64,000 nt of DNA, from positions 1-64,000 of the forward strand of contig JAHLWZ010000807.1 of NCBI GenBank assembly GCA_020536535.1, read 5' to 3'. This stretch comes from Pelomyxa schiedti (lineage: Eukaryota > Protista > Evosea). The notes beneath the pieces are model-generated. The model did not search any database. It was given only the letters and a program-made list of their open reading frames with translations, and was not told the origin of the DNA. The first letter of the stretch is position 1. Every line of letters starts with the position of its first letter. Made by a program: the position numbers and the translations under genes. Positions 5,427-53,585 of the stretch are shown piece by piece.

Positions 5427-7958
5427 ATGTGGCGCTCAGCGAGCGTGAGAAGGGATGCGCCACCGAAAGCACACACGAAACCATTCTTCGTGCTGATGGG
5501 AGATGTGGGATCAGGGAAATCGACCCTTTGCGAGAAACTCACCGGCCGGACTGGTCTCAGCTCCGACTCCGCCGAATCATTCACAAAGGAGTCCAAGATT
5601 TTTCTTTCTGTCTCTCGAAAGCTGGTTAATAACCAAACATACACGACAAAAAAAAAAACCAAACGATAACGTCCCTAATTCCCGAAGCTTGGCCTCATTC
5701 CTTTTTTTTTATCCCCCAAGGTTGGTGCAGTTGAACGACGATACTGGATCGCCGACACACCAGGTCTCAATTCAATGAAAGGCCGTGTTGATCATGCACT
5801 GAATGTGCTTGGAGCGATGAGATTCAAGCCAGTGACGTGCCTGCTCATGGTTTGCTCCCTCAAGGACAGACTCGATGGTTTGGCAAAGGCACTTGATGAC
5901 CTTGTTACTCCATTCATCGAAGAGTTCGGGAACAATATTGCCGTGATTGTCACTAAGTCTGACTTGTGTCAAACTCTCGCAGTACATGAGATAACCGGTG
6001 TTGCACTGAATCTGGGCCTCTGTAACGTTATGGTCACGAGCAAAGGCACAACAAATGCGGAACTGCTAGCATTCTTACAAAAACTAGAAGGAATCACACC
6101 AATTGACGTAACCATTGCACCCGAGAACTTGGTGTCATACTTCAACTTGACGCCTCCTAACTTGAGAATGCGAGCCGTTTACAACAAGTACGTGGCGCAC
6201 TATAAGAATTTGGCCGAGTCAGGCACACAACAGATGAACACTTTGCAAGGAGATGACAAACGGGACTTCGCGTTTTCGTTCAAAGCAATGATGTATGATC
6301 TCATTCCGAAGTTTCAGGCCCAACTTTCTGAGGAGCTGGGAGACAGCGAAGCAAGCCTCCTTTTCTGTGGTGAAATAAAGAAAGAGTTCAAACGTAAGCT
6401 GCTCGAAATCCGCAACCACTGCAAAGAGGAACTGTACGTGAACCACAATTCTCAATTCAGACAGTGCCCTTACTGTGGAAATATTTGGGTCCTCGTTGAA
6501 GGTTCCAAAGGAAAAACTGTTTGTGGGAATAGACCCTTAACGGCAGAAACTTGGAGGCCTTTCAATGTTTTTGATTTCGATATCAAAAAGCTTTTAAAAC
6601 TAAATCTTACAGGACCCAACTGGGCAGCAAGTACAACCACAACTAGGAGTTGCCGGTTCACCGATGCACAGATAGAGAATTACCTGTCAGATCCCAAAAC
6701 TCCAGCAGAAACGGCGAGGGCTATGAGAGCGTTGCGCACCATCATCACAAAAACGAGCCAAGACTCTGTGAACCAACACATTTCTGCACTCGACCCAACA
6801 ACAAAAAGTGCATTGAGGAATCTGTGCCGGCAATATGCTTCTCGTCATTCTCAGTCCCGGCCTTCTCGCTTACTCAATCGCTTCTTTCCCCCAACAGAAG
6901 AGGACATGTTCGAGACCAACGAACTGAAACTATGCTTTGAATTCACAATTGCGCCGTTCTTTGAACGAACAACAGGAGGATCAAACCCAGAACTTACTAA
7001 GCCCTGTGGAAGAACCATTGCATGGAAGGACATGGCTCCTGTTCCACCGCCATCTGACTGGGCCTCGCAATCGGAAAACCGTATGACAACTGTTGATATC
7101 CAGGACTCACCAATTGACACCAGCCTTCATCGTCATCTCAAAAGCAAGATTACCGCAGAGGTAAATGTCGCCGTCGACCCGCGTGTCGCGGCCGCTTTTG
7201 GAGCACTTAAAACTATGAGAAGATGGAGCCAGAGCGACCAGTGCGTGATCAAAGTTCGCGACGTTATAAGTGGGCAGTTTTGCTTCCCAGTACCTGAAGG
7301 AGGACCAGAAATTCCACTGAGAATTTTGATTGAGACCAATCCAAAATTCAAGGACCCAAGAGTGGAACTTGTAGTGAAACATGCAAGGGGCTGGAGTGGT
7401 CTAGCTGACGACGAGATTCGAGTTATTTCAGGCTTCACTGCCAAATTTTTTCCCACACTAACGCCGGATATCATGGGTTATCTCCTGCAATCGCTCACCA
7501 AGTGCCCTGCAATGCCTGGCAAGGTCTACAGTGTAAGCAACCACCGAGACACAGAAAACCGAAATACCCAGTGCCTGAAGGGCAGGTACATCATTTGGCC
7601 AGACTTTACAGCTTGTAGCCGGAGCTTCCCGTCAATGCGGCTCTTCAACCTGAGCACCCCAACAACACTGTATGAAATTGACCAAGGCTCAGGGGTCGAC
7701 ATCGACCCAGTCTCTGTCCGGAAGTTCGAGGACCTTACAGTCTTAATTCCCAACACTGTGTTCCAGGTTGTCGACATCGCTTGGGGATGTGAAGCGAGCT
7801 ATGACACAGTGCACCTCAGGGAGGTTCCTAGGGGAGCAGATCTACTGGGCATGATGGAGTGCACAACTTGTGAAGCTGAAGTGGAGGGACCCTGTTCTGA
7901 AACTAGCCAATCTCCCGTGGCATACATGCCGACCAGTGCCATCAAAGGTAACCCATAG
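5427..7958 (+). CDS. Paralogue A: P-loop GTPase (TRAFAC, AIG1/MMR_HSR1-like) + helical region + Cys knuckle + degenerate ART-fold C-terminal domain
   Basis: Exon 1 has G1 GDVGSGKST. The acceptor at 5720 gives VGAVERRYWIADTPG (G3) in frame with ORF 5775-7958, which has G4 VTKSD and CPYC..VEGS..TVCGNRP. The C-terminus reads KCPAMPGKVYSV..WPDFTACS..TLYEIDQGSGVDI..VLIPNTVFQV..VHLREV. The donor at the position used by the paralogues reads AT (5598), so the intron start is uncertain (candidate GT at 5625). Confidence 0.8.
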
Positions 7959-8065: not shown

Positions 8066-11000
8066 ATGGCCTCTCCACAGCCGACAAGGGCTACTACTTC
8101 GACCCCGCAGGCACCGTTTTTCGTGCTAATGGGCGACGCGGGATCAGGAAAATCAACATTGTGCGAAAAACTCACCGGCAGGACCCTTCGCGGAGTCACA
8201 TCGGAGTCCAAGGTGCGTGTCTCGCCCCCTTCTATTCTTTTCCTTTGACATCTCTTCTCGAGGTTTACCCAATTGAGAGAGGATACTGGCTAGCAGACAC
8301 ACCAGGTCTCAATTCAACGAGACGCCGTCTTGATCATGCACTGAATGTGCTTGGAGCAATGAGATTCAAGCCAGTGACGTGCCTGCTCATGGTTTGCTCC
8401 ATCAAGGACAGACTCGATGGGCTGGAACAGGCCGTCAGTGACCTCGTCACTCCGTTCATTGAGGAGTTTGGGGACAACATTGCGGCCATTGTGACGAAGA
8501 ACGATATCTTACCTACGATCACGCCGAAGCAAATCCGCACAACACTCGTGGAGCTGGGAGTGGAGAGAGTGATGGTAACGAACAAAACCACAACAAAGGC
8601 GGAGCTGGTTGCTTTCCTGCAAACCCTTCAGGGAATCCCTCCAATTGATGTAACAATTGCACCCAATAACTTGGTGTCATACCTCAACTTGTCCCCTCTT
8701 AACCTGAGGATGCGAGCCGTTTACAACAAATACGTGGCGCACTATAAGAAGATGGCTGAAACGGGCACACAACGGATGAACTCATTGCAAGGAGATGACA
8801 AACTTGATTTCGCTTTTTCTTTCAAAGCATTCATATATGATCTCATTCCGAAGTTTCAGGCCCAACTTTCTGAGGAGCTGGGAGATAGCGAAGCAAGCCT
8901 CCTTTTCTGTGGTGAAATAAAGAAAGAGTTCAAACGACAACTGTTGGAAATCAGGGGTCTTTGCAAAGAGGAGCTGTATCTAAATAGTGATTCTCCATTC
9001 CGGAGGTGTCCTTATTGTAGCAAAGTATATATTGTCACGAAAGGCTGTGAAGAAAGCGCTGCTTGTCACAGCCGACGGTTGGCTCCTGGATGCAACTCAC
9101 CACCCACCACGCCCTGCGAAATAACTATTGCATGGAAGGATATGGTTCCTGTTCGACCTACATCTGGGTGTACCACCCAGTTGGAACACAAGAAAAGAGA
9201 GGTTGAAGTTGAGAATTATGCAAATAAAACAGCTCCAAAGAGGCAGGCTAGCCTCGAGACCGATATCAAGTTAGGCAGTGATTTACACACTTCTACGAAG
9301 AAACATACTTCTTTGATATCCAAAAAGGATGGCGAGCGTCATGTAACCTCAAAGATCAGTATTGCTGTAAGGAAAAACACATCATCAAGCTCAAGGAGGA
9401 GAAAACATGAAATTGCGGTTGAGGCGGCCAAACCAAAGATTGACATTGACACACACAACATGACGGGAATTGAAGTGAACGCCGGTGCACCTGTTGCTGG
9501 TGACAAGCCAAAGCTCGATGTCAGTGTGGTTGATGAAGCCACACGGAAATCAACCTCATCAAGTATGAAGCCACCGTTCAGCGGGGCAAAGAAATCAAGA
9601 TCATCCTCTTCCAGCTCTCGGAAGAAGAAAGCGGCAATCAAGGTGGATGCTGGTGTCAAGGTTGATGCTGGAATCAAGGTCAGCGGTGACAAACCAAAGG
9701 TCGAACCACCGAAGAAGAGTGGAGGGTTCTTTGGCTTCTTCGGCGGCCCCAAGCCAGAAGCACCCAAAGTCACTGTTGGTGCCAAAGGGAAGCAATCCAC
9801 TTCGTCAAGCTCTCGGAAGAGGAAAGCAGCACACAAGGTTGATGCTGGAATCAAGGTCGGTGGTGACAAGCCAGCAATTGGGGCCACTGTGACGGTCGAT
9901 GGTGGTGTGAAGGTTGATGCTGGCGCCACGGTGGAGGCTGGAATCAAGGTCAGTTATGGCAAGACAGCAATTGGTGACAGTTTGAATGTTGAGAGACTGA
10001 AAATAAAGCCCGCATCCCCCAGTTCTATCTTGAAATTTGATGAAGACAAAGTCGGAAAGTCTTCCAGTGACCCACACCTTAAGTCACTTGATATAGGAAC
10101 CCCAGTAACCCTTCCTCAAAAGACAGTTAGCGCACCAATATGTCACATCCGAACAGATGAGGTGGAAGGACTGTGCAACTGGATGGGGCTTCAACATTTT
10201 GATTACAATACACACTTCAAAGTAACAAGAGATGATAGGACCGAGGAGCTAAGCAGCAGTCTTCCAACTTTCGTTGCTGCGGAGATTTTCAGTATGTTCC
10301 CCTGTCCAACGTGGCTGAAACAAGTCGAATTCTCACCCATTTGAAGGAGCCAGAACCCTTTCTGAATTGGGCTACCAATGCAAAGCACTAGTAATTGGGC
10401 ACTATGGCCCTGACAGACGTTTCAGTGCTACAACTGCCATTTCTGACGTTTGCCTACTTCCCTTTTCGATATTTTTCCTTATTTTTAATTTTATTCATTT
10501 GCAATAGTTTCTGCGGCGCACGTGTAACTTCACAGTTGTGGAGGAACCAAGCTCAGTCACGTGGAAAGGCACCTTGGATCGATTCCTGGCTTTACCTGTC
10601 GATAATCTGGAGTCTGCAAAGGTATGTCCTGCAAAACTCTACATTTGTCTCACAAATGGCCAAGGTGGCAAGCATTTTTTATTTTACAGGAACTGTGAAA
10701 CAAGTTGGCAACCAACAGAACTTGTTGTTGGCTGATGACAGTGCATTTTCTCCCACAGACTACATGATGCCACTTAGCAATATTGTGTCCCGTATAGCCA
10801 TGGAATCTCATTTGATCATTGCCATAGTGGATGCAGTCCAATCGGAACACGTTTGGGGGCAGTGGGTGTGGAATGTTTACTTCCAACAGCCACTCATCTT
10901 GATAGGTACCTCAAGGAGCATTTTCTTACCTCAGAGGAGCTGAACAGTTAGCACGAGAACATCTCCCAACAGGGTATTACCTGGTGTTATCGATGAATCA

Positions 11001-11276
11001 AGGTTGGTTTTGTTCGGTGACTGTCATACTCAACAAACAGCAGGTTATGAGGTGTCTGAGAGCAAAAGAAAGTTCACCAGTTGTTTCAGAGATGGTACTT
11101 CTTTTTTTGTTATACTGTAAGATTTATTTATGAACACAGAGCTTTTGAGTGCAACGACAGGGACACCTTTTGATGACATTGTGGATCGCGCTGTGACTCA
11201 GGTTCAGTTAGGCACAAATGGATGCCTGTGTCCTTGTGTCAATGACACTGTAGGCACCACTTTCGCCCTTTTCTGA
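8066..11276 (+). CDS. Paralogue B: P-loop GTPase + Cys knuckle + K/S/G-rich repeat linker + catalytically dead caspase-like (Peptidase C14) domain
   Basis: G1 GDAGSGKST, intron 8213-8262, then DTPG and VTKND. GT-AG introns 10292-10346, 10448-10507, 10622-10664, 10866-10905, 11003-11040 and 11095-11139 keep one open frame to TGA 11274-11276. The spliced tail reads KALVIGHY..FLRRTCNFTV..SIFYFTGTVKQVGNQQNLLLAD..IAIVDAVQS..PTGYYLVLSMNQAGYEV..KFTSCFRDEL..FDDIVDRAVTQVQLGTNGCLCP..TFALF. Confidence 0.8.
9370..9975 (+). repeat. Coding repeats KVDAG(I/V)KV(S/G)GDKP alternating with SSSSRK blocks inside paralogue B
   Basis: caaggttgatgctggaatcaaggtc at about 9657 and 9833, with a variant at about 9910-9950. 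tcaagctc..ggaaga-type blocks at about 9385, 9612 and 9805. Confidence 0.85.
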
Positions 11277-11383: not shown

Positions 11384-13764
11384 ATGAGAAGGGTACCAAC
11401 GGTCCCGCCGAAGGCACCGTTTTTCGTGCTAATGGGCGACGTAGGCTCCGGGAAGTCAACGTTGGTCGAAAAACTCACTGGGTTGACTGGTCTAAGCTCA
11501 CGTCAAAGCATTACGTTCACATTGGACTCCAAGGTTCAGCACCCTTTCTTTTTGTTTTTTTCCTAACCGATGTGTTTCAGGTTTTTATTGTTGACCAAGT
11601 GTGCTGCATCGCCGACACACCAGGGCTGAATTCTATGAAAGGCCGTATTGATCACGCACTGAATGTGCTTGGAGCGATGAGATTCAAACCATTGACGTGC
11701 CTGCTCATGGTTTGCTCCCTCAAGGACAGACTCGATGGTTTGGCACAGGCCGTCAGTGACCTCGTCACTCCGTTCATTGAAGAGTTTGGGAACAACATTG
11801 CGGCCATTGTGACGAAGAACGATATCGTACCTACGATCACGCCTGAGGAAATCCGCACAACACTTGGGGAGCTGGGAGTGGAGAGAGTGATGGTAACGAA
11901 CAAAACCACAACAAAGGCGGAGCTGGTTGCCTTCCTGCAAACCCTTCAGGGAATCCCTCCAATTGATGTCACTATTGCCCCTGCTCAGTTGGTTTCCTAC
12001 TTTAAACTGGCCCCTCCCAACCTGAGGATGCGAGCCGTTTACAACAAATACGTGGCGCACTATAAGAAGCTGGCTGAAACGGGCACACAACGGATGAACT
12101 CATTGCAAGGAGATGACAAACGTGATTTCGCTTTTTCGTTCAAGGCATTCATGTATGATCTCATTCCACAGTATCAGGACCAACTGAACCTGGAATTGGG
12201 AGAATGTGAGGGAAGCCTCCTTTTCTGTGGAGAGATGAAGAAAGAGTTCAAACGACAACTGTTGGAAATCAGAAATCAATGCAAGGAGGAACTCTACCTT
12301 TCCTCCAACTCACAGTTCAGGAAGTGCCCTCACTGTGGAAATGTTTGGGTACTGGTTGAAGGTTGTACAGGAAATACTGTATGTGGAAATCGGCCGCTAG
12401 CTGCTGACGTCTGGCGCCCATTCAGCGTATTTGAGTGGGACGTCAATGCCCTCTCCACTCCGGAGTACAACTGGCCAACAAGCCCTGCCACCACAAGAAC
12501 CCACGCCTGCCGATTCACGAGCGCACAGGTCGCACAGTACTTAGATCATATCAGCGCACCAGAAAAAAGACAAGCAATGATTTTCTTGAACACCCTCTTC
12601 ACAAATACAAGTCAACCAAATCAAGACAATGTCAACCAACAGATAGCTCTACTTGCAGCAGAAACGAAGAGAGAGTTGGAAAGGATGAGCCGTGAGCACA
12701 TTTCTCGGCAGGAAGAAGACTTCAGCCGGGCGTATCGCATACTCTGCCCTCCAAAGGAGGCAGAGATCTTCAGCATCAACCAGCTAAAACTTTGCTTTGA
12801 ATACACCCTTGCCCGTTTCTTTTCACACGAAACTGCAGGGCGCAGACCAGAACTCCCGAAGCCTTGTGGAAGAACCATTTCATGGAAGAACATGGCTCCT
12901 GTGCCCCCACCACCCGAGTGGACAAAACAGTTGGAACACATGGAGAGAACTGTTGATGTGCAGGACTCTACAGTTGACCTCAACCTTCACCAGCATCTCA
13001 GCAGCAAAAGCACGCCACAAGTAGCTGTTGTTGCCGACCCATGCATTACAGAAGCTTTTGACGCTCTGAAAACCATGCGAAAATGGAGCCAGAGTGACAC
13101 TTGCGTTGTGAAGGTTCGCGACATGGCTGATGCTGGCAAGTTCCTCTTCCCACTCCCTGAAAGACCAGCTACCCCTCTTACAAGTGTGCTTGCCAGCAAT
13201 CCCAAGTTCAATGACCCCACTGTGAAAAGTGTGGTGGCCAACAACAGGGAGTGGAATGGCCTCGCGGATGACGAAATTGGACTTGTTGCGTTGTTCGCAT
13301 CTGGCCTGCTTTCTGATAATCTGCACAAGGCATTGGTGTACAGAGAACCAACAGCAGACAACCTTGAAATCGCAAGTCACCTTCTTCAGGTGCTCAATAA
13401 GTGTCCAGCAAAGCCTGGGAAAGTGTACCGGGGAGTAGAACTCCACCAGGCCGCCTCACGTTACGTGCCTGGCAAGTGTGTGATTCAAGATTTTTTTTGT
13501 ACTTGCACCAGGGATTCCCGTATTGTTGAGCAGTATGCAAACACCAGTGGGTCTGTAATGGGGCCTAGGACACTTTTTGAAATTGATCAATTCTCTGGGA
13601 TTGACATCCAGTGCATGGCAGCTCATAGGCCACAAAGCACTCTCTTGACACCAAACACAGTTTTCCAGGTATTAAGTGTGGAACGCGAGAGGAAACTGGA
13701 CAAAATACACCTAAAAGAGGTTCATGGAGATGATCTTCTACTCATCATGGAGCACTCCACCTAG
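11384..13764 (+). CDS. Paralogue C: P-loop GTPase + helical region + Cys knuckle + ART-fold (R-S-E class-like) C-terminal domain lacking the catalytic Glu
   Basis: ATG 11384, G1 GDVGSGKST, intron 11534-11580, DTPG, VTKND, CPHC..VEGC..TVCGNRP. The C-terminus reads LADDEIGLVALF..LHKAL..LLQVLNKCPAKPGKVYRGV..FFCTCT..TLFEIDQFSGIDI..PQSTLLTPNTVFQV..IHLKEV. Confidence 0.85.
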
Positions 13765-14019: not shown

Positions 14020-16410
14020 TCAGGACTTCTTTTTGGTTGTTGACGGGAATGTTACGAGCTGTTGAGTTTCAATATCCCCTTTCTTGCATTTCCTGAGTCT
14101 CGTGATTACACACAAGATCAGAAGGATGAGAGTGATAGTTAGTAGAAGTGGTGCATAAAGCCTTCCTGGGGAGTGTGTTCGGGGAGCTGGAACAGAGGCA
14201 AGAGTAAGTGCTGCAACAGCTACTGTGCGAGTGATAGCTGTGTGGTAGTTTTTATCTATTGAACTTGTGGTATCTTTGTTGTCATGATAGCCGGCCCTCC
14301 GGAAGTTATATTCGGCATTGAAGTGCTCGTTCACTAGCACAACCTAAATATGGAGTGAGATGGGGTTACAGCAAAGGGTACTTATACTGGGTAACCAGCT
14401 AAGGCCACAGTTATGCCATCGGTGTTGTAAAGAAAACTTGTGGAGTCCCACCTGTCTGGGGAGATTACCTTCAGATTTGGAGCTTCTTGTTGTGCTGCAG
14501 CCATAAGAATTTTAGCTATGTAAGAAGATTGCCTTGTGTCACTTGGGTTGATCTTGTTTGCGTGAGTACGATAGAAAAAATTAGTGTGGTTACCTGAAAC
14601 GTGTTGTCACTGTTGAACCCAATCATATCCAAAACTATAAATGCTGTAGCATCGCGCCTCATTTCTAAAAGTTTACTAACAAGAAATCTTGCCCCAAGAT
14701 CATCAGCAGGAAATTCCTTTTATTGTGCACTGTCACTCACTACAAGGAAATGGAAGGAATAAAACCTCTCCCACGAGGTGAGCAAGCCAAATATCCCTCT
14801 GAAGAGAACTGACATCTTTCAATACTTGAGCTATGATCATAAGGGCTGCCGTTCCAGAGGCGTCATCATCAGCACCAAGAGACGCAATCAGAGTTTTATT
14901 GGTGGAATACACATCTTCACGCCATGCGACATCAAAGTGATCAGCAATGATAATGGGATACTTCCCGGAATTACTATTTCGACCAGGAATAACCGCCACA
15001 AGGTTTTTGAACGCTTTTCCTTGCCAACTGACTTTTTGCGTCCAAGTTTGCAGTCCCATGCTGGTATAGTATTCGGAGAGGTAGGTGACCACTTCCTGCA
15101 ATTTTGATTCTTCTGCTAAGTTTGAACACTGGCGATGATTTAAGTACAGCATAGGGTGCCTTTCAACAGGTACTTCTCCTGCTTGCTGTTGTGTGAGATA
15201 ATGTAGCTCTTCTGTGAAAGTGCTTGGGAAAGAAATGGTTCGCACGTGCGGTGTATCTTGAAGACTATGCGCTTCTCTCATTGCCTTAGTATTCACCCAG
15301 TTCCATTCCTTGGGCCACTCAACAATTCCATCACATACGTGGAGGAGAAAAGAAGTACTCTCTCCACGTACACGTGGGGGTTGCGGAAGATAGATACAAG
15401 CCCGCTGGTTGAGTTTTGGGGTCACGGAGTACAAATTGGACATCTCCAGAGGCAGCCAGGAAGATCGCCCGGGAAGTGGTACTAAAGTAGAATTGTCCAC
15501 CCATAGACAGTCACCAAAAAAAGGCTTATTAAACCAGAACCACTCAGATGGGGGGCCTAAAACAAGATAAAAAAACATGGATCAAAAAGAAGAATAATGT
15601 ACCTTGGAAGATACACTGCGAACCATAAGTCTCAGAAGGACGGTATAACTCTGCAAATAATGGCTGTGTTTTTTCGTAAGAAGAGGGAAAGAAGGCCCAA
15701 TGGAAATTGCCCTCGCTAAATGATGGAGTACTTGAACGTTTGGATTTCTTCCACCTAGCAATTGCCCAGGTAATTTGGCCAAAGTCATTTTGCACAGGCC
15801 AAGCCTCCACATCAATACACTCAGGGATTTCTGGTTCTATCGGATTGAGCAATATTTTGTGGCTTTTTTGTTTTTTTTTTGTGGTTGGTGTTTTATTTTT
15901 GCTCCATTATCTTTCTAATTTTTGCGCACTTCCAATTGCCGTAGTCTGTGATTCGTTGTTGTTAACAAATAGCATGTCCCATAATCCTCTAAAGTGCGCT
16001 TCACCCAACGCCTTCGCAAAATCCGGCAGGTCAATCCCGCCCCTCGCGCACCCATAACACTCAAACGACGACTCGCACCTCCCAACATCCCCCTCCATCA
16101 CTTTCTCAGTCTCCGTCTCCGTCCCTGCAACCCCAGTCCCAGTCCCAACCCCACTGGCCAACTCCCACATGCTACCACACAGATACAGTGCCGTCCTCTG
16201 TTCCGAGAAGGCATAGTACGTGCCTATCGGCTTGGTCTCGAACACGTGTGCACTCAGAGGTTGCTGCGCCTGTCGTACGGCGTCTCCCTGCAGATCCGAC
16301 GCTGGCCCAACTGCAGTTGCAGTAGATATGAATGAGACTGAGACTGAGGCCAGCAGCGCCCAGTAGCAGTTGCACCCACAAAGTACAACGAAGACCGGGT
16401 GCACGTGCAT
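14020..16410 (-). CDS. M28-family zinc peptidase with N-terminal signal and C-terminal transmembrane anchor (multi-exon)
   Basis: Motifs IADHFD, GADDDASG, VGE|EFPADDLGAR, LDMIG, LYNTDG and GYHDNKDT. Hydrophobic N-terminus from ATG 16410 and C-terminal PLLLTITLILLILCVITRLRK. The 5' exons are less certain. Confidence 0.8.
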
Positions 16411-21008: not shown

Positions 21009-24000
21009 TTAGAGTTTCCTGCCTCCTGGTAAGGGAGAAACACAACCCCAAGTTTCAGACCACCAGTCCTTTATAGTCTGAATGCTGACAACATGTGATG
21101 AAAACAGCAAGTCAATGAGAGTGGTGATTGTGGCAGCCAGGGCCAGTAGCCGGTCATGCTCGGGCTCAGTTATGGGAGTCAGGTTGGTGAGCTGCTGGAA
21201 CACAAACAAGTAGTCAGTCCCCCTCTTGAGAGGCTGAGTGAGTGCAACTGACAGAGGAAATCCGCCGTACTCATCAAGGTTCTGAAGAATGCCGGTGAGT
21301 ATGAACACAGGTGGATGTGTAGGTAGCAAGATAGAGAAATTGTTTGTTGGTGGGTTTTTTTTTTGTGTCCATCTAATAAGAGGGAGATGTGCTGGGGATA
21401 TGGATGGGGAAGTTTACGTTGAGGACTGTGCCCATACTGGTATCGCTTTGCGTTTTTTGAATGTCAATGAGTGCAAGTATATCAGATTGAAACTGCAGAA
21501 CATAGTCTGAATAAGAACTGTAGGCTCCAGTCTGGAAAATGTTGTGCTTAATAATTTTCTATGCCACTTTTAGGTGAAAAATACTGAATGGAAAGTTTCC
21601 ATAAGATGTGCATTGGAAGGTTTCGCAGAGGCCATTTTTTCACAAAACCTTGGGTGGCAGTAAGTTGGAACTTACATGATCAAGTGCAAGTGATACTCAC
21701 ACAGTGTGTGTCTGTAACAAATTTTCGAAAAGAGCACATGTGGAAACTACCAAAGGATGCTTATTTGTAACGGGATTGGCTTTCAGTGGTCTTACAAATA
21801 TCTGTATTTTATTCATTCAATAAGTTAGATAGTAAGGGAAAACGCACATCATGTGACTTTTCCAGTTCTTCAATATAAGTACTTTCCGTGGCTAAGAGTT
21901 TTGCTATAAGAGTGGATACCCGTTCCTCTCTTGTTCCCTTATTATTTATTAGGGATAAAAATTAGTAGTGAGCTTACATCTGTAAGTTGAAAGCCGGTAT
22001 AAAACATTGATTTTCTTGCTGAGGCACAAGCTTCACTGATTTCAAGTGCCCAAGTCCGTTTCGTAGAGCTAATTGCACTGGCGGTCGCAGAGCTTGATAA
22101 ATTCTTTTGGGTTGTCACTGATGTCTCACATTTCAAGACGGAATTTGGAGAAAACAATAAGAACACTGAGCGAGTATCACCATATTCCAGTGAGCATTTA
22201 CTCAACTCAATTTCATCAATGAATTCGTATTTCTTTGATGCATTTTCGCGTTTGGTAATTACAAGTATGTCAGAGAAGAGCCACATATGAACGTCGTCAT
22301 TGTTCACAATCATCAAACCATCCCGCAGATACTTGCGTTGTGGCATTGCCACAAGCCATGTCTTTTGGAGAAGGTGTGGTGCTGATGGGGGAGCACAAAT
22401 CAGCTTAGAGATGTCAAACAATTTCAGTACATCCTCAATGTTCGGAGTAAATGAGTGTGCATATGCATCCATTTCAATCATGAAGGATGAGGCTTTGAGT
22501 AATTTTGGGTAGTCAGGGTGGTGTTCGTGAGTGAATTGCAGGAGCTTTTCAATGAAGAACGAATCTTTTCATTTATTGGAAGAAGATATACAAAGTGCAC
22601 GCTCACATTTAGAAAACCTATGCAATGGGTCGATGAGTGCTAATTCTACAGGGAATTCAAGTTCATCCAGTGCGTGCTGAAGGAAATGGGAATGCAAAAA
22701 GATTATCATGAAGATAACTACCTCCAAAAAGGCACGGAACTCCGGGTATCTTTTCTTAAATACATCAAAAGAGCCAACACATAGTCCAAATCCATTGATA
22801 AACTGCTCGTACAATGATATCCAGTCATTCTGCAAGGGAAGGTGTGTGCAAGTTCAAGCCTGCTTGTGGGTGGGTGGTGCAAGCAAGTATTGTGCACGTA
22901 AAATATAGGAGAGGTTCGTAGTTTTTACACACGTTTCGTTGATACAAATCTCCGACTTCAGTTGTTTCCTCCTTCCAAGTTGACAATCTTTTCAGGATTG
23001 CTTCGGCAATACTGTAAAATGTCAGACTAGTCCTGATTAAAATGAATAAATACCCTTGGTGGTGCAGTTGAAGGGCTGTTAAGTTGCACCAAAAATGTAA
23101 GTCATCACTCTTAGGTAAAAGAAAAAACCTTCTACATTGGACATCATGAATGCCATTTCCTCTACACTAATTGGAATTTGTGTCGAATGTATTTGTCTAA
23201 AATACTGGCGTGCATTGAGTATAATAGGAGGAAAAAAAGGAAACGAGGCCTACTGCCATGGCAATCTTTGTTCTGGAAACAAAATGCTTCTCCTCCATAC
23301 ACAAGCACTCAATGACATTTCTTCTACAAGTTGCGTCTTCAAGTTTGAATACAATAGGTGCAGGTTGGTCTTCCAGGAGTGACAGAGTGATATCAAGCTG
23401 CCTGTGTAATAGTGTTCACATTTTGTACTTTACTCTTTTCAATAAAGGAGTATCATTTGTACTTATTTCGATCCAGAAGATCATTTAATTCCCCTGTCAC
23501 AGCGGCAATATTAGCTTCCAAATCTTTTGTGATTTGCTAATAACATTTAGTTAGACTTCCAACGATAAGTGCCTCATTTAGGATGATTTCAAAAAAAAAA
23601 AAAAAAAAAAAAATCCAACGACTTGGCATTTTGTTGTTGTTGTTGGAACTGTTCATACACACATCGGCAGTTATGGGATCGTCCAGCCTGTGAGATGCAA
23701 CGGCCAGCCTCTCATTTGGCAGAGGTGGGGAGCTAAATTCGTTCCTCTGAGAACCCCAAGTTGGCGCCTCGTAAAAGTCGCCGTAAAACCTCGTGTCAAC
23801 GTCGTCCACGTTCTCGCTGGCCCTAAATCCCAGTCCCAGTCCATAGTCCTCATCTGACCCAGATCCCAAGCCCAGCAACTTCCCACAAGTCTGTTTCCCC
23901 GTCGGCGACGTGGTCTTGGACGACGCTGTGGCCGTCGACGCAGTCGCGGTAGCTGTTGCAGTTGCATTCGCAGCGGCTGATGACGTGGCGGCGGTTGAAG

Positions 24001-24405: not shown

Positions 24406-25682
24406 ATGGGGAACAGCAACACTTCCTCACCGGGGGAAATCGTCAGTCCCCAGCCCGAGGACCACGAGCACAACGATGGACCCGACGACGATATGTTGCG
24501 TCCCACAAGAGGAGGGCGGCCGGATTTCACTACTGTGGTTGTGGACAATGGCACCCACACGATCAAGGCCGGGTTTGCCGGGCACAACTCCCCACGGGGT
24601 ATGTTTCGCCCTATCATTATGGGAGCGAGCTCATCTGGTGACCTGCGAGGTATTTCTTCTGTTTCCCAGCTGTAACTTTGGTCTTTGGTTTTTCCCCGCA
24701 TACTTGATAGGTTTTAACCTTTTTTTTTTAAATAGTTGGTGACGAGGTTCCTGTAAAGTGCACCTCTGCTAGGTGTCCTATGGAGAATGGTGTGGTAACG
24801 AACTGGGAGGATATGGCTGTGGTGTGGGAGCACATGTACAACAAGGAACTTAGGGTTTCGCCATCAGACCATCCACTGTTGATGGGTGAACCTGCTCTGA
24901 ATCCACCCAAAAACAGGGAGAAAATGGTAGAACTTGTGTTTGAAAAGCTCCATGTGCAGGAATTTTATGCAGCAAATGCGCAGCTTCTGGCTTTGTTTGA
25001 CTCAGGGAGGAAAACTGGAATTGTTGTTGACTGTGGATTCCAAAGCTCCCGTGCTGTTCCCTGTTTTGAGGGTTCCTACCTACCTCATACAGTAGGAAGG
25101 TTGGACATTGGCGGCAAGCACATATCTCAGCTCATGGAAAGAGCTCTGTCAGTTACGCCGGAGATTGCCTCTGATGTTGTAAATCAAACAGGTTACGTTG
25201 CACTGAATTTTGAGGAGGAATCAGCAAAGGCTGCAGAAGACCAGTCCTTGTACAAGACATATGAACTGCCTGATGGACAAGTCATCACAGTTAAGAGGGA
25301 TCGGTTTCACTGCCCCGAGGCACTTTTCCAGCCCTGTCTTGCTGATGCACCAGCAACATATGAGAAATGTGGAATCCACACCACCTGCTTCAATGCCATC
25401 ATGATGTGTGATCCCAGCATCCGGTTAGAGCTGTACAACAGCATTGTGCTCAGTGGAGGAGCTTCAATGCTTTCAGGACTGGCAGATAGGCTGACGGCGG
25501 GGGTTGCTTCCTATGCCCCTACAGCAGCCCGTGTGAAGGTGGTAGCACCACCAGAGAGGAAATATGCAGTGTGGATTGGAGGGTGCATTATTGGCTCAAT
25601 GTCAACATTCAGCCAAATGTGGATAAGCCACTCAGAGTATGAGGAAAAAGGCGCTTCGTTGGTGCATTACAAGTGCTACTGA
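24406..25682 (+). CDS. Divergent actin / actin-related protein with an N-terminal extension
   Basis: VVDNGTHTIKAGFAG; intron 24650-24736 gives RVGDE; then NWEDM, EPALNPPKNREKM, SGRKTGIVVDCG, YELPDGQVI, RFHCPEALFQP, IVLSGGASM, PPERKYAVWIGG and VHYKCY. Confidence 0.92.
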
Positions 25683-26066: not shown

Positions 26067-29000
26067 ATGAGCGGACGCGGACGCGGACGTGGACGTGGCG
26101 GCCGAGCAGGATCTCGTGGCGGGCGTGGCGGGCGCGGTGGGGCATCGTCCTCACGCGGGGGGTCGCGCGGTGCATCGCGTGGCGGGTCGAGGGGCGGTTT
26201 TGGCCCTCGTGGTGGAAGAGGTTTGTTTTGTTTCGTTCTGTTTCGTTTTTTTTCTTTTTCCCCCCTAGAAACTACTTGCTCACTCGTGTTTAACGTGTAG
26301 GGGGTGGTCCTGGTGGCGACCCTTTCTCTGGTCTCCCTGGTTTCGATGCGGCAAACCAATTGCAAAAGCTCAAGGATGTTGCTGTGTTCTCCAAGCTTTC
26401 TCCTAAAGAGCTTCGTGTAACAAAGAACGCGCTCCTTAATGTTGTATCAGCCTCTCTTGTCCGGGAGGTAATACTTTAAGGGTTTTTTTTTTGTTTTTTA
26501 ACTTTCTTTTTCCAGCCCAAATTTGATTCCCCTACCTCTGCAACTGTAAAGATAAATATCTTGGTTACACAGATTGCTTTTTACGATCCCGAGTTCATTT
26601 TGAAAGTTGCCCTTTACATGCGAACAGAACTCAATATTCGTTCCACCTCAAATTATGTGGTTTCCTTGGCTAGCAACATCAGACATGTAGGACCAAAGTT
26701 CGCTTTTTGCAAAATAATAAGCTGTTTAGTGTTCGCCCTTCCTTCGCAAATACTGCAAGGCCACAATCAGGCTACCCTCTGATTGGCTTGACATCGCTTC
26801 TACCTACCAGTGCCTCCCAGACAAGACTTTACGTGGGAATGGTTGGTTCCCCAATATCTTTTTGAGGTATTAAACCGCTGCAGCCCTTCCAACGGCTCTA
26901 CGAAAGGCCCTGGTGGATAAGTTCCCTGATTTTGATGTTTATCAACTTGGAAAATACAACAAAGAGAATTCCCTCAAGCGCAAGAAGAAGAAGCTCCGCT
27001 TAAAAGCCGAAAAGGAACCCACCAAGGCTGTATTCCAAGCTGGTATATTTTTCTTAATTTCAGGTTGGAAACTAAACTCTACACAGGTAAACCTCCTGTG
27101 ACGATTAAGCAACTTGTCCGACAGCTCCACATCTCTGAGCCTCCTTATCATGTTATGTGTATTTTGGGTAAGAAGTACCCAACAACAGAAGAAGAGTTCA
27201 AGAGGAATAGATTACCAGGCGAGTTCCAACCCAAACTTGCGGGAACTCGCATGAAATTCCCCGTACCAGAAACCTGGGAAACTCTGCTGTCTCAAAAAGG
27301 CAATAGGGTACAAATTCCAACAGACTAATGCGTATGAGTAACTTTTATTCAGTCCTCAACTTGGGAGGAGCTAATCGAGCACAAGAAGCTTCCGTTCATG
27401 GCAATGCTTCGAAACCTCCGCAATCTAATCTTCACTGGCGTTCACCCACGATACCACAAGTAAGTTAAAGCTTGAAACAAGAGAAACTAATTCCTTTACC
27501 AGGTGGGTAATGAACAAGCTTACTAATGAAGGGACAATTGCTAATAGCAAGCAATTCCCTTTCCGATTCTTCAGTGCTTATGAAGTCATTCCCAAAGATC
27601 TTAATGACTTTAATGAACAGCTGGATAAAATGAACAATCCTAAGAAAGCTGCTGCTAAGGATGGCGATGCAACTAAAATTCGAAGGAAGAAGAAAAACCC
27701 CATCGTCCCCACACACAGACCACAAGATGACCTCTTCGAGAAATACAGAGCTGCCCTCGACACAGCTGTGAAACATGCTACTACCCACAACGTAAAGCCC
27801 ATCCGGGGAAGCACGGTTGTTTTTTGTGACGGCAGTTCAGCGATGAGGGTATGCTTCTCCTTGTGGTTACATCAAATCCTAATTTAAACTATAGGAGGCA
27901 CAAAACCAGTGCGGAGTTGGCAAGTTCAATCAATTGAACCAATTGGGTATCCTCCTTGGCCTTATGTGCAAGTATGTTTGCGAAGACTGCGACTTCCGTA
28001 TCTTTGGTGGTGAAGTTGACGGTTCCCGCCACCGAAGCGTCACGTTGATGGAAGGAACAATTCTAGAAAACATGCGTATCGTCGAGGAATCCAGCAAAGC
28101 TTTTGAAAATGGTGCTGCACAATTCCCATTCGACTACTTTGAAGACCTCATCAAGAGGAAGGAAATAATCGACAATTTCATTGTCTTGTCTCACCACCTA
28201 ATTCTGCCAACCGAAGAAGGAAGTGGGCCAAATACCATCCCCAGCATTCTTCACAAATACCGGCAAGAAGTCAACCCAAGAATGCTATTCGTGAGTGTAG
28301 ATCTAAGTGGAAGAGGAAGCAATATCAGCCAGGGTGATGATGAACACCCCAATGATATCCTTGTCAGTGGTTTCTCGGATGCTATCCTGAGGTTCATAGC
28401 CGAAAGAGGTGATACCAACCAACTGCAGTACGTGGAGCACATTGACATTGCACACAACTTGGTTAAGAAATCTACTGTTGAGGCTGTTGTTTCTCCACTT
28501 TATGCACCCGAGCCCCCCAAAAACCCACTTGCAGCTCTAGAGGCTCCCAAGATTGAGGAGAAGGCTGAGCTGCCGGCTCCTATGAAGATTTTCACCACTG
28601 AAACGAAGTGGCGAACTTGCAGGGTTTTCATCTCTTCCACCTTCCTTGATATGCACGGAGAACGTGATATGCTCACACGGAAGGTTTTCCCAGAATTGAG
28701 GGACAGATGTATGTTTAGCATTGAATTTTCTGCAATCTCACTCATTTCCAGGCGCCAAGAGGCATATTCACCTTTATGAAGTAGATCTTCGGTGGGGTGT
28801 AACCGAGCACGAGACACAACAAGACAAAGGACTTGAACTGTGCTTGGATGAAGTCCAAAACTGTTCCCCGTTCTTTATTGGCTTGGTTGGCAACCGGTAC
28901 GGCTGGGTCCCCAACGAGTACACAGTCCCCGACCACGAGCGCTTTGATTGGGTCAAGTCATACCCGGTAGGCCGAAGTGTTACCGAGCTGGAAATGTACA

Positions 29001-32000
29001 GTGGAGCCATCAAGGATAGCAATCCTCATGCTTTCTTCTATTTCCGAAATCCTGCCCTCGTTTCTGAGATCCCTCAGTGAGTTACCCGCTTTCCTTTTCT
29101 GCTTCTTTAACGTCCCTCAGGGAACACCAGCGTGCCTTCGCCTCCGAATCACCTGAAGCAGAACACCGGATTAATGAACTCAAATCGATGATTCGTTCTG
29201 CTACAAACAATGTGGTTACATACAATGCCTCTTGGAGGGGTATTGTCGATGGCAAGCCTATGACGGGAAATCTTGCTGCACTGTGCAAAAGAATTACAGA
29301 AGACTTGTGGAAAAACATTACTGCGGTATTTTCTTTTTCATGAGTTTATTGAATATGACTTTTCACAGGTTTTCCCGGAGGAATCCGCTGAAGAGTGTGA
29401 CGCTCTTGATATTGAGCAGGCTTATCACGATGCCTTCGCTGAAGACAGACGGAAGTTGTTCGTTGGAAGAAAAGACGTGTTGACTGAATTGACCAAATGG
29501 TGCGATGAACCAGCTGCTGGCACTATTATTCTCACTGGGCCTCCTGGCTGTGGAAAATCTTCCATAGTTTCCGTCTTCGCCAAGCAATACCAGGTTTCAA
29601 CCAATCAACTTTCCAACCATTCTAACATACTTCAGGCCAGAAAACAGAAAGTTGTGGTACTTCCGTTCTTTGTTGGAGCTTCCCCAGGCTCCACTGACAT
29701 ACGACGCGTTCTCAAGAGTTTGTGCATGCATCTTGCAAAACGATTTGGAATTACAGATCCAATTCCAGAAGATTACAAATCTCTTCAGAAGGTAAGATAT
29801 TAGACATATTGGTTTTGAATATTAACACGGTTTTCCAGACCTTTGCGCGCTTCCTTGAGCAGGCGTCTTACATTGCTCGCCTCGTTCTCATTTTGGATGG
29901 TGTAGACCAATTGGACAAGACCAACCGCGCTCACTCCTTGGATTGGCTCCCTCTTGTCCCTCCAGCCAAAGTGATTTTAACTGCTGCTGAAGGCCCAGTA
30001 CTCAAAGCGTTGTCCCAGAGGACCTCTGCTCCAACCAACACTAATACCCTCCTGGCTCCAAAACTTGGTCCCATGCTCGGAAATACTCGTGAAATCGCGG
30101 TTGGGTCTCTCCCAATTCAAGACGCCAAGCAAGTTGTTCAAGGAGTTCTTGCCGAGTATCACAAAAAGTTGGAAGATGGCCCAATGAACGATCAGCTTCG
30201 CGTGTTGCTGAAGAAAGGCGATGCTGGCCGTCCTCTGTACTTGACTGTTGCCTGTGAGGAACTGCGAGTCTTTGGAGTTTTTGAACAGCTCACTGATAAG
30301 ATTAAGTCTCTTCCACCTTCCCTGCTCAAGTTGTACGACGAAGTTCTGGCACGTCTGGAGCTTGATCACGGGCATGCACTCGTTCCTCAAGCGTTATCTA
30401 TGTTGGCCTGCTCTCGTGGTGGACTGAGGGAAGACGAACTTTTGTGCACACTGAAACGAAACAATGACGAGGAAGCCCTTCCACGTGCAGTCTGGGCACC
30501 ATTGCGCCACGCCTTGAGGGTATTCGTGCGTGGTGATGGTGAAGAAACACTGGACTTTGTGCACGCACAATTTAAGACCGCTGTGGAGAAGAAATACCTC
30601 AATCCAGTGAAGCTTCATGGAATTCATTGCGCCCTTGCAGCTTACTTCATGGACAAGGTAGTTGTGAACAATTCTTCACTGTCTCTAACTGTTCCTCAGG
30701 CTGATCCCAAGCACAATGGAACATATCAGGGTGCGTCCCTGCGTGGTGTGTCCGAACTTGCGTACCATCTGACAATGGCGCAAATGTGGCCACAACTTAC
30801 TAATGTGCTCACATCACTTCATTACATTGAGAAGAAGTGCACCATGGGACTAGCTAGCGACCTTCTTGCCGATTACACATCAGCTGTTTTAATGGGTACT
30901 GAAGGCAGATCAAAGGAGTGGGCTGGCATGGATTTAGTGAAGCAGTTCTATAACTTCGTGTCGAACTCTATCCATGTCCTTTCGGCTCTCCCCCATCTCA
31001 CCTTCCAGCAAGTATGTTTTCGTTGGCTATGTGTTTCCTTATAGTTATTGTGCCTTTAGGCAGCAAATCAACCCGACGTATCTGCTGTTGCCAAGGCGGC
31101 TAAGCAGTTATGGGACGATCATTTGGAAAAGAGAGCTTGGATCAAGTGGGTCAACAAGCCCCAAGTTCTTGATCTATGCCGCTTGACTGTTTCTGCTATG
31201 ACCGACGGTGTTACAAGCACTGCTTTCTCTGCGGATGGGCAGCTCATTGTCTGTGCTTCTAGAGACTGTACTCTGAAAGTGTTTGAGGTGGCAACCGGAC
31301 GTGAACTGGCCACCCTCAAGTCACACTCAAGCCCAGTTATCGACTGCTGTTTCTCACCAGACGGAAAGTTCATTGCCTCTGCAGCTTGGGATAACACAGC
31401 TAAGGTTGTCTAACGTCCTGTCAAATTAGAACCTAACACTACCAGATCTGGGACACAACCAACTTCATCGTGGCACAAACGTTGACTGGTCACAATGAGC
31501 GGTTGTCTGCTGTTTGCTTCACTTCCGATAGTTCCAAGTATGTCCTTTTTTTTTTTTTTTTCTCTAACTTGGGTTCAGGGTTGTCACTGCAGCGTGGGAC
31601 AACACCATCCGTGTCTGGGATGCCACCATGGGATCCTTCCTCTTTGAACTGAAGGGACACAAAAGACCCATCAACTCATTGTCCCTTGTTCCAAATGGAA
31701 ATATGATTACCTCAGGTTCGTACTATTTCCACGATTAAAGTTGTAACAATTACACAGGATCTTGGGATGGTGAATTAATCGTGTGGAACTTGGATACAAA
31801 GGAAATGTTTAAGAAGCTCAAGGGACACGAGAAGTCCATCAAAACTTGCTCTTTCCATCCAAATGCCCGACAATTGATTTGCAGTTCCAAGGACGGAGCC
31901 ATTATGCTGTGGGACGCCCAAAGTGAAAAGAGAGTTGCACAGATTGGCTCTCACGCCCTCCCTACAAATTGCAGTGTTTACAGTGACATTGGAGATTATG

Positions 32001-34213
32001 TAGCAAGTGCTAGTGACGACGGCAGTGTGAAGGTGTGGGATGCTACCTTGGGTAAGGAGACCGCTACCGTGAAGCTTGAGGACAATAACATTGGTGCTAT
32101 GGCGCTTAGCCCGGATGAGCGATATTTGGCTGCTGCGCACTCTGATACAACCATTCAGGTTATTTCTCCTTGTTTGGTTGGTGAACTCACTCCGTTTTCA
32201 GATCTGGGACTTGACACTACTGAAGTCAGTCCGTACGCTGCGAAAACACACCCAGGGGGTTACTAGCCTGGGCTACAGACCTGACGGCCGCTTCATTTGC
32301 TGCGCCTCGGTCGACGCAACAATGAGTGTGTGGGATACTAAGTCTTGGGAATGTGTGCGTGTCTTGACTGAGCACACTGCCCCAGTCAACTGTGTCAGTT
32401 TTTCGCCAAATACACCCAGAATGGTGTCGGCTAGCGACGACTTCTCGTAAGCAGCACAGAACTCTACAAGTGATCTAACCTTTATTTAGATTGATCATGT
32501 GGGATACGAACACATGGAAGCCTGTAGCCACTCTCAAAGGACACACTGCAGTGGTGAAGTGCTGTGCCTATTCCCCTGATGGAAAACACATCGTCTCGAT
32601 TGCTCGGTATGAGAGCTCAAACATTCTTTCCTCCTTACTTCTTGCAGTGATGGCACAATCCGTGTCTGGCACGTTGAATCTGGGAAGTTGCTCCACACCA
32701 TGTCTGGCCACCTTGATTGGATCAACTACTGCGCTTGGTCTCCTGACTCCAAGAAGGTGGTGACTGGTGCTTGGGATTTCAACTGCAAAGTCTGGAGTAT
32801 GAAGAAAGGAAGAGAAGTAAAGGCTATGCAAGGCCACGGAGGATCAGTGGAGGTTTGCAAGTACAGCCCAGACGGAAAGGTGATTGTGACTGGCTCCTAT
32901 GACAAGTCGATGAAGGTGTGGGATGCCGAAGGGGGGACTGAAATTACTGCACTTAATGGCCACGGTGCTCGCATTAACTGCTTCGTATTCATCCGCGGTG
33001 GAAAGAGTTTGGTGAGTGCCGCCGATGATAATACACTGAAGGTTTGGGACCTCCTTGCATCGAGAGAGGTTGCCACACTTGTTGGACACAGTGCCTCAGT
33101 CCGCAAATGCTCGTTCTCACCAAAGTCTGAATTGATTGCTACTGCCTCCGATGATGGTACCGTGAAGGTGTGGGACTGGAAGCGTCAAGCGGCAGCTACC
33201 AAGACCGCGGAATCGATGAGACACGCTGGCTCCATAACAAGCTCATGCTTCTCTTTGGAGGGTGATTTCCTTTGCACCTGTGCTTCTGATGGCTCTATAA
33301 AACTCTGGAACACCCTGGTCACAGATGAAGCCTCCCTTGGAAAATGCGTTACTCTTGCCTTGGGTGGTGGGGAGACACCCGCTGTGCGATGTTGTGTCTT
33401 TGCTAAAGGAGGTGTTCTTGCTACGGGAAATGACCGAGGCCTTATTACTCTCTGGAATACCAAGGATTTCACGGTAGTTGGTACTCTTTCAGGCCACACT
33501 AACGCTGTGCGTGGGCTCGCCTTCACTCCTGACGGGAAGCACCTTGTGTCTGTTTCTTGGGATACCCGCGCCATAATCTGGAGTGTCGCAGGCCTAAATC
33601 AAGTTCGCGAAGTAACTGCCCACTCTGAGTGGTTGGAGTGTGTTGACATCAGTCCGGACGGCAGTCTCGTCGCCACAGGTTGATCTCTTTCCCGTGCGTT
33701 ACCAATGTCCTCACAATTTTCTTGTATAGGTGGTAGGGACAACAATGTTCTCCTGTGGGAATTTGCTACTGGTGAGGTTACTGGGTACCTCAATGGCCAC
33801 ACACAATGGGTCATGTCCCTGGCCTTAGGTGGAGATCATAAGATTGCAACTGCCTCCTACGATAACACTATGAGGTTCTGGGACCTTGCTGTTGCAGGCT
33901 ATGGCTCTGTTGCCTGTGAGGGTCACAAACAAGCAGTACGTTCCCGCATTTTGGCAGGCTTTTGTTTTAACTGTATTTGCAGGTTACGTGCGTGAGGTTC
34001 GCACCAAACGGCAGGCACCTTATCACATCGTCACTTGATCACACTATCAAGCTGTGGGATAGCAGCACACCAACACCAAAGCCCGTTCTGGAGTTCATGG
34101 CAGTTTCTCCATGCACAAGTGTTTCTATCTCGCTCAAGGCACAACTCCTGGCTTGTGGTGACCTGCTTGGCAACGTTTACCTCCTCAAGTACACACGCCC
34201 CGCAAGAAGCTAA
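26067..34213 (+). CDS. TEP1: Telomerase/vault-associated protein 1 (TROVE + vWA + DUF4062 + NACHT NTPase + WD40 repeats) with an N-terminal RGG box
   Basis: [46 protein letters not shown] and [14 protein letters not shown] (TROVE); [16 protein letters not shown] and DLRWGV (DUF4062); GPPGCGKSS and ILDGVDQL (NACHT); many GH..WD repeats up to the stop at 34213. Confidence 0.92.
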
Positions 34214-53400: not shown

Positions 53401-53585
53401 ACCAGGGGGCTGCTAGCGCAGGTCACGCCGTGGCCATGTACAACCTGGGCGCGTTCTACTTCTATGGCACTGGTGTTGTCAAGGATATGGACAAGGCAGT
53501 GTCACTGTGGCGCAGGGCTGCTCAGCTAGGCAATGAAGAGGCCATTGCTAAACTGAGGGATAACGGGAAAACAGAAAGTGAGTAA
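50452..53585 (+). CDS. PINK1-like protein kinase fused to TPR/Sel1-like repeats
   Basis: MGNRNT start; ISHGCNG|IVYEV, VLK, HPNINRYF, IHFDLKLDNI, LIDLG, HRAPE and FELGCILFEL..HP. Sel1 repeats LGLCYELGVG..DFNKAVELYRRAA, AMNNLAACYERGLGV and AMYNLGAFYFYGTGVVKD. Confidence 0.85.

Follow-up and report, generated by a model that had tools for sequence, protein, structure and literature searches.

A GTPase gene of Pelomyxa schiedti that continues into a predicted, catalytically dead caspase-fold domain

When a stop codon closes the open reading frame of a GTPase, does the gene end there, or does the stop lie within an intron that leads on to a second domain? This question is raised by the middle member (gene B) of three tandem GTPase genes, A, B and C, in a 64,000-nucleotide (nt) stretch of DNA from Pelomyxa schiedti (contig JAHLWZ010000807.1 of assembly GCA_020536535.1; this whole stretch is hereafter the window). 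The GTPase open reading frame at 8059-10344 matches six P. schiedti proteins, the first being gene B itself: Pelo_10993 (P0001), an NCBI model of 949 amino acids (aa) named "hypothetical protein" and flanked by Pelo_10992 (paralogue A) and Pelo_10994 (paralogue C). An earlier reading of the letters by themselves (the sequence-only reading) had placed the stop inside a 55-nt GT-AG intron and had proposed that six introns of 38-60 nt lead into a pseudo-caspase tail. We find that this tail is a pseudo-caspase of para/orthocaspase type, with a predicted fold, outside every active C14 subfamily, and that gene B quite probably encodes a single fused protein.

With its introns removed, gene B reads as 958 codons from the ATG at 8066 to one stop, the TGA at 11274-11276 (Table 1), in agreement with P0001 through residue 934; the protein comprises, in order, a GTPase, a zinc-knuckle, a Lys/Ser-rich linker, a SAM-like remnant and the caspase-fold tail. 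The stop at 10342-10344 does fall within a 55-nt GT-AG segment, 10292-10346, which is the best of the candidates by homology, and six introns keep the frame open to 11274-11276 as proposed, at lengths of 40-60 rather than 38-60 nt: a 38-nt version of intron 5 was rejected by a spliced RNA contig, in which that intron measures 41 nt. All GT/GC-AG pairs within 45 nt were scored on a profile of five catalytically dead paralogues from which B was excluded: introns 1, 2, 3 and 6 scored highest against 59, 16, 33 and 40 alternatives, intron 4 was joint first among 79, and intron 5 lay less than 1 bit off the best among 61. Retention of any single one of the six tail introns leads to an early end of the frame. 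Contrary to the earlier claim, the join is not hidden, for Pelo_10993 already links these exons, unnamed, and shares all six tail introns; it adds a seventh at 11207-11253, which we reject because RNA reads through it and the homology score drops by 11 bits. The C-terminus of the public model is wrong, and the frame given here corrects it. Six introns are ordinary for a resident gene, because P. schiedti has 7.43 introns per gene, 98.41% of them GT-AG (PMC8887013): the unusual part of the locus is its 2-kb intron-free exons.

RNA evidence comes from four runs of one sample, as assembled contigs only. A 444-nt contig of run X2, with 0 mismatches, has introns 11003-11043 and 11095-11139 spliced out; the tail is thus transcribed, with at least some of its introns removed. 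Intron 4 (10866-10905) and the NCBI seventh intron are both read through in this contig, whose 5' loose end at 10758 we take to be library adapter rather than an upstream exon. The GTPase part is connected to the beginning of the linker by another contig (9025-9382, 0 mismatches). RNA cover is absent from all four runs at 9383-9639 and from about 9986/10018 to 10757, and introns 1-3 are uncovered. That GTPase and tail form one transcript is suggested by the DNA frame and by homology: the captured module starts at about 10132, upstream of intron 1 and within the GTPase exon, where the earlier start had been 10292, so that the fusion of the two parts in the DNA frame does not depend on the splicing of intron 1.

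What is the tail? The caspase-hemoglobinase motifs that had been listed for it all occur, in order and in place, in the spliced frame, and the aligned codons confirm the replacement of both catalytic residues: the His site is ACT (Thr, 10692-10694), the Cys site is GTC (Val, 10836-10838), and gene B reads DAVQ where its intact relatives have DxCR. The ND motif ahead of the first helix in intact members, which we take to be the acidic S1 pocket, is also lost. Because the His-Cys dyad of an active C14 peptidase is absent, proteolysis by the tail is excluded on C14 chemistry (PMC5756287). Against a profile of intact paralogues the spliced tail reaches 83.6 bits (best of 200 shuffles, 1.5), and against one built from C14 domains outside Pelomyxa it reaches 20.4 bits (best of 200 shuffles, 2.1). 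Pfam and PDB sequence searches with the tail or its single exons gave no match at E<=10, a word-based search yielded no match among 837 candidate proteins in the 30-520 aa range, and the nearest paralogue, P0007, matches PF00656 at E 0.0055; the tail family is a C14 subfamily that Pfam misses.

The top ESM Atlas matches for the tail are Peptidase_C14 clusters (score 0.95, 26/30). Single-sequence fold prediction was of no use (predicted local distance difference test, pLDDT, 36), and an AlphaFold model built on a 14-paralogue alignment reached pLDDT 77 and a predicted template-modelling score of 0.70, the last 24 residues lying outside the model. Foldseek ranks MALT1 first (E 4e-6); in VIA, MALT1 (Z 13.6, root-mean-square deviation 3.7, 175 aligned), caspase-9 (13.0) and cFLIP-L (13.0) are tied within 1, and the top ten rows (Z 12.0-13.6) are all caspases, MALT1 or cFLIP, with metacaspases at Z 9.4-11.9. 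Searched against PDB sequences, the family profile found MALT1 only (10/10 rows, E about 1e-4) and no metacaspase at E<=0.01. Metacaspase identity is rejected, since all 12 intact relatives checked read DxCR and the metacaspase motif is DxCH. Viral fold matches are distant giant-virus caspases (E>=9e-5, the three best at 8-13% identity), and there is no sign of a viral donor among the fold matches. Given the caspase fold of the model and a C14 profile match above shuffles, we consider the identity and fold of the tail very nearly secure, and the suggestion that it is closer to ortho- or paracaspases than to metacaspases is upheld by the DxCR of its relatives and by MALT1 as best match in both fold and PDB profile.

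Does the tail stand alone in its genome? A full HMMER scan of 1.84 billion representative proteins gave 17 non-self matches, 16 caspase-type and 15 named Pelomyxa, and a profile search and a cluster look-up added three and one more; one Logan protein among the HMMER matches clusters with a Pelomyxa protein, and P0017, a Gram-positive surface repeat protein without C14, was dropped. Fifteen Pelomyxa proteins are of intact type (FAGHG): DxCR is present in 14, the model of P0012 being without that strand, and 14 of the 15 models carry both His and Cys. A SAM or SAM-like segment precedes the caspase in 14 (P0023 is a fragment), with Pfam SAM matches in five (E 1e-14 to 9e-3), and the N-terminal parts hold LRR (5), MORN (2), Sel1, Ras, and ankyrin plus PARP-regulatory domains. 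NCBI names two intact members "caspase family protein". All these paralogues are automatic gene models, and some may be mis-joined. For P0005 and P0006 (GTPase-ART) and P0029 (intact phosphoesterase-LRR-caspase) the longest contig is in each case 68429 bases, and the two families may therefore adjoin at a second locus.

Gene B belongs to a dead clade with five others: P0007 and P0008, which sit on a URGCP/RHD3-like GTPase (Pfam below cut-off; P0008 a partial relative), P0009 and P0019, on bpMoxR AAA domains, and P0010/P0024, on an ankyrin protein. The dead cassette is found on three NTPase families and one ankyrin protein, and the fusion of GTPase and tail is one instance of a repeated pattern in this organism. 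All six dead members lack the catalytic Cys and five lack the His, which P0009 retains; the last strand is kept in 5/6. Dead and intact members share 22-32% identity, and the tail of B is 64% identical to P0007 and 57% to P0008, both also dead. A careful tree of 39 rows (omitting the N-terminal C14 of P0011, P0012, P0023 and 88 of 108 non-Pelomyxa rows) supports the Pelomyxa family at 100/100, the dead clade at 99/98 and B+P0007+P0008 at 95/99; in a quick 81-row tree, the N-terminal C14 of P0011 had triggered a warning of long branches. That protein has two C14 domains, the N-terminal one very divergent, without DACR and apparently a separate catalytic loss. P0007 and P0008 (53656-base contigs) and P0019 and P0024 (76889) have close accession numbers, suggesting local clusters of dead cassettes. 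Outside Pelomyxa the best profile matches are bacterial-type C14 proteins with far lower scores and no particular donor: the 108 non-Pelomyxa rows among the 120 best matches are all PF00656, and the few organism-named ones are bacteria. A prokaryote genome scan with P0023 found one weak locus, and a metagenome scan found 22 distant, intron-free-looking matches (21-37% identity), none of them a close Pelomyxa-type relative.

How did the tail come to gene B? At its start the module has 53 residues alignable with P0007 and P0008; their match to intact members is weak and confined to the first half of the SAM-like segment (dead-clade hhalign 82%). On its own the segment of B scores 4.3 bits, within shuffle range, and is modelled as strand-helix-strand-strand with no helical bundle. 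Five of seven obvious departures in paralogue gene models, picked by eye, coincide with intron sites of B (P0023 at site 2, P0009 at 4, P0022 at 5, P0015 and P0028 at 6; P0012 and P0018 elsewhere), and the binomial p of 4e-5 is a guide only, since the departures were hand-picked. Taken with a second RNA contig, which carries the Asp-to-Asn change of P0008 and leaves the B sequence at the intron-6 acceptor, this pattern suggests that the tail introns are older than the catalytic loss and that an already dead cassette was copied at the DNA level. Since three NTPase families and an ankyrin protein all bear dead copies, the module was likely dead before capture. Capture from an intron-bearing resident gene, as the sequence-only reading suggested, is therefore supported by the family tree and the shared intron sites, and the ART tails of A and C are indeed intronless; an active donor paralogue, for which it proposed a search, was most likely not the source, as the tree rejects an active immediate donor and the nearest relatives, P0007 and P0008, are themselves dead. 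A 280-nt stretch of the linker recurs, with differences at more than 12 places, in RNA contigs that continue into other repeat units, and gene B probably has three sources. These contigs (window 9640-9919, depth 8-26, three runs) resemble the linker repeats, differ from them, and run into further Ser/Lys-rich units; they represent another repeat-rich expressed gene, perhaps the donor of the linker.

The GTPase part carries GDAGSGKS, DTPG and TKND, presumably G1, G3 and G4; its Pfam MMR_HSR1 match (E 2e-4) is just under cut-off, and its Atlas score is 0.96. The switch-I region is six residues shorter than in A and C, and, compared with the paralogues, about 150 residues have gone from between the knuckle halves. 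The ART positions lost in A and C (Table 1), which we take to be catalytic residues, are retained in P0004-P0006 on other contigs. All three tandem genes end in apparent pseudo-enzymes, and the eroded ART tails fit either a decoy array or relaxed selection. The GT that serves B and C as donor of their first intron is AT in A (5598-5599), and the later donor of the NCBI model adds nine residues.

What might such a fusion do? Caspases are activated by dimerisation, and the dead paralogue cFLIP-L heterodimerises with caspase-8 (PMC11121540); in P. schiedti the dead fold likewise occurs in one genome with 15 intact-type proteins. Because the cell has many intact paralogues and the last strand survives, our best guess, which we hold at close to an even chance, is that B is a GTPase tethered to a dead domain of predicted paracaspase-type fold and would act as a GTP-gated, cFLIP-like tuner of the intact caspases; a partner-regulator role as such we judge possible, somewhat short of even. 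A C14 peptidase of bacterial or paracaspase type would have multiplied in the lineage as a SAM-caspase cassette at the C-terminal end of proteins with LRR, Sel1, MORN, ankyrin and Ras modules; from one copy the Cys and the greater part of the SAM domain would have been lost; and the resulting dead cassette would have been copied as DNA, introns included, behind several NTPases, gene B being the copy in which it replaced an ART tail. Intact members may be activated by SAM-driven clustering and dimerisation, and GTP-dependent localisation or oligomerisation of B would offer them the dead domain as a partner that either activates or inhibits, probably during anti-microbial or cell-death signalling. 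Some constraint on the tail is likely: its frame is open and its splice sites intact at 36% divergence from P0007, simulated neutral drift (2000 runs) left the frame stop-free in 5.7% of runs at 18% divergence and 0.8% at 30%, and site conservation in dead and intact members correlates (rho 0.26, p 1e-4, 220 columns).

Several observations weigh against such a tuner. The constraint could date from the donor gene, before the fusion, and of the SAM domain that would bring B to intact members there is a remnant only. No RNA contig in the four runs links the GTPase exon to the tail, and retention of intron 4 would end the protein at 10941-10943. Two dead rows of the tree, P0010 and P0019, are long branches, so the dead grouping may be partly attraction, and the shorter switch I and the eroded ART tails of the neighbours fit relaxed selection in the array. 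Gene B could be a decaying chimera, a real product of domain shuffling that is transcribed, mis-spliced and drifting without selected function, which we regard as improbable: retention of intron 4 in the sole tail contig, deletions in switch I and the knuckle insert, the eroded neighbour genes and a terminal branch of 0.35 (0.11 for P0007) all suit it, but 958 codons and seven introns contain no stop or frameshift, two introns are precisely spliced, and simulated drift seldom leaves the frame open. Moreover, the RNA contig with the Asp-to-Asn change of P0008, whose break with the B sequence falls precisely on the intron-6 acceptor, also seems to retain an intron, and retained introns may thus be characteristic of the library. 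It is more improbable still that two genes were joined by single-cell amplification or an assembly chimera in the linker, or that a GTPase ending at 10344 is followed by a separate transcript. The gaps in RNA cover within the linker and across the GTPase-tail joint would allow this, as would the derivation of the 9640-9919 contigs from a similar but different repeat sequence and an assembly built from single-cell data (PMC8887013); however, a single open 2029-nt exon spans the GTPase and the 53 module residues alignable with P0007 and P0008, one RNA contig crosses from GTPase to linker, and the repeat copy of the window differs from the other gene at many sites, spaced at under 80 nt, and gives way by degrees to unique sequence.

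Alternatively, the dead domain might serve as a decoy or substrate trap, baiting microbial anti-caspase effectors or holding the substrates of the intact enzymes while the GTPase senses and reports engagement; in A and C, the eroded ART tails would be similar baits. We think this unlikely as well. In each of the three tandem genes an enzyme fold lacks catalytic residues, the dead cassette is joined to three unrelated NTPase families, bacterial effector-caspase complexes are among the fold matches (3v3k, 7xn5, 7wr4), and so is the dead caspase-like domain of Raptor (Z 10.2), which binds substrate. Against this, loss of the ND motif makes a substrate trap doubtful, no effectors of the symbionts of this amoeba are known, and at 22-32% identity dead members would be poor mimics of intact ones.

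Pseudo-caspases, amoebozoan paracaspases and bacterial NTPase-effector fusions are each already known. For their combination here, a lineage-specific sensor-SAM-caspase family with a dead cassette shuffled, introns included, onto three NTPase families, we found no description: a full-text search, with most subscription literature outside it, found no paper on caspase-like proteins of Pelomyxa or on a SAM-paracaspase family in protists, the sole paper with both words (PMC9707564) being unrelated. The supplementary domain tables of the genome paper (PMC8887013) could list intact members. If the family is functional, a protist evolved pairs of active and dead caspases using SAM rather than death-fold adaptors, and it supplies named proteins on which the role of caspase-like proteases in unicellular eukaryotes can be tested. 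A bolder proposal, that Pelomyxa has its own caspase immune or death circuit, independent of animals, in which single-chain receptors made of a sensor (LRR, Sel1, MORN, ankyrin or Ras), a clustering SAM domain and a paracaspase would be checked or activated by NTPase-gated pseudo-caspases such as gene B, we consider doubtful; were it true, an endosymbiont-packed amoeba would hold a unicellular parallel to caspase-8/cFLIP and to GBP-caspase platforms.

Elsewhere in the window, 29698-33680 (+) encodes an Apaf-1-like protein in which WD40 repeats follow an APAF1_C helical domain; this candidate platform for the caspase family has a DUF5920/DUF4062 open reading frame just upstream (27895-28779). 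Roc and COR-A matches at 35018-37539 (-) mark a Roco GTPase. Other genes encode actin (24732-25682, +), peptidase M28 (14733-15581, -), Sel1 repeats (52575-53585, +) and a PH domain (21942-22568, -), and a minus-strand transcript is spliced at an intron of about 14343-14386.

Table 1. Exons and introns of gene B and its two flanking paralogues, in window coordinates
Feature	Positions	Strand	Description	Evidence
Paralogue A (Pelo_10992)	5427-7958	+	GTPase and intronless ART-like tail without conserved Arg and Glu positions	
Exon 1	8066-8212	+	ATG, P-loop GDAGSGKS; switch-I region 18 nt shorter than in A and C	
Intron 0	8213-8262	+	50 nt, GT-AG	Position matches RNA-confirmed intron 11534-11580 of paralogue C
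Exon 2, start	8263-9240	+	Rest of MMR_HSR1/AIG1-like GTPase (DTPG, TKND), helical domain, Cys-rich knuckle	
Exon 2, middle	9241-10131	+	Lys/Ser-rich linker; 18-nt-period repeats at 9624-9992	
Exon 2, end	10132-10291	+	Start of captured module: degenerate SAM-like remnant, in frame with GTPase	hhalign 82%, 34 columns
Intron 1	10292-10346	+	55 nt, GT-AG, phase 1; holds apparent stop 10342-10344	Homology; without RNA cover
Caspase exon	10347-10447	+	Strand 1 KALVIG at 10382-10399; without ND motif of intact relatives	
Intron 2	10448-10507	+	60 nt, phase 0, in-frame stop, 27% GC	
Caspase exon	10508-10621	+		
Intron 3	10622-10664	+	43 nt, phase 0	
Caspase exon	10665-10865	+	Both catalytic strands	
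Intron 4	10866-10905	+	40 nt, phase 0; donors 10875 or 10851 near in score	Retained in sole RNA contig
Caspase exon	10906-11002	+	GYYLVLS strand	
Intron 5	11003-11043	+	41 nt, phase 1	RNA-spliced
Caspase exon	11044-11094	+	FTSCF helix	
Intron 6	11095-11139	+	45 nt, phase 1	RNA-spliced
Last exon	11140-11276	+	Through TGA, with last strand that NCBI model removes via false intron	
Paralogue C (Pelo_10994)	11384-13764	+	GTPase and intronless ART-like tail without conserved Glu position	

How does gene B compare with known systems? The MALT1 paracaspase (MEROPS C14; PDB 3v4o, 4i1p) is the best fold match and the sole PDB profile match of the Pelomyxa family, whose intact members have the MALT1-type motifs FAGHG and DACR; the likeness is one of fold rank and PDB profile only. 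Type 1 paracaspases such as MALT1 have N-terminal death and Ig domains (PMC5978004), whereas B has a GTPase and linker, with no death or Ig domain by Pfam, places its caspase domain C-terminal to the GTPase, and has lost both catalytic residues. Type 2 paracaspases consist of the caspase domain only, with DxCR (PMC5756287, PMC5978004), unlike the multi-domain B with its DAVQ. Bacterial C14 "orthocaspases" (with FGE-sulfatase, Sel1, TPR or WD40 tails) are 18-22% identical to B for four of them; their extra domains are commonly C-terminal to the peptidase (PMC5756287), whereas in B the caspase domain is itself C-terminal. Gene B is also eukaryotic and intron-rich, and a long branch (100/100) isolates the Pelomyxa family. 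Metacaspases have DxCH at the catalytic Cys (PMC5756287), in contrast to the DxCR of intact Pelomyxa relatives. Paracaspases of animals and dictyostelids have been placed as acquisitions from bacteria (PMC3417536).

A dead fold beside active paralogues is also found in cFLIP-L, Trypanosoma MCA4, cyanobacterial pseudo-orthocaspases and the N-terminal domain of Raptor. The cyanobacterial proteins are prokaryotic and have Tyr/Ser for His/Cys (PMC6426788), whereas B has Thr/Val in a spliced eukaryotic gene; the resemblance to the cFLIP-L group lies in fold and paralogue context, B differing in its independent catalytic loss, its lack of a DED and its NTPase fusion. Prokaryotic NTP-dependent conflict systems combine GTPase or MoxR cores with swappable effectors, among them caspase-like peptidases that are fused to components of the core (PMC7159879). 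The two dead Pelomyxa copies on bpMoxR resemble them, but are eukaryotic single-gene fusions with a dead effector. Finally, the GTPase part (residues 1-350) is closest to uncharacterised MMR_HSR1 ("50S ribosome-binding GTPase") proteins of ciliates and cnidarians (Atlas 0.96, 207-209 of 256 features in common), whose clusters are 452-464 aa long, and to which the Pelomyxa copies add ART or caspase tails.

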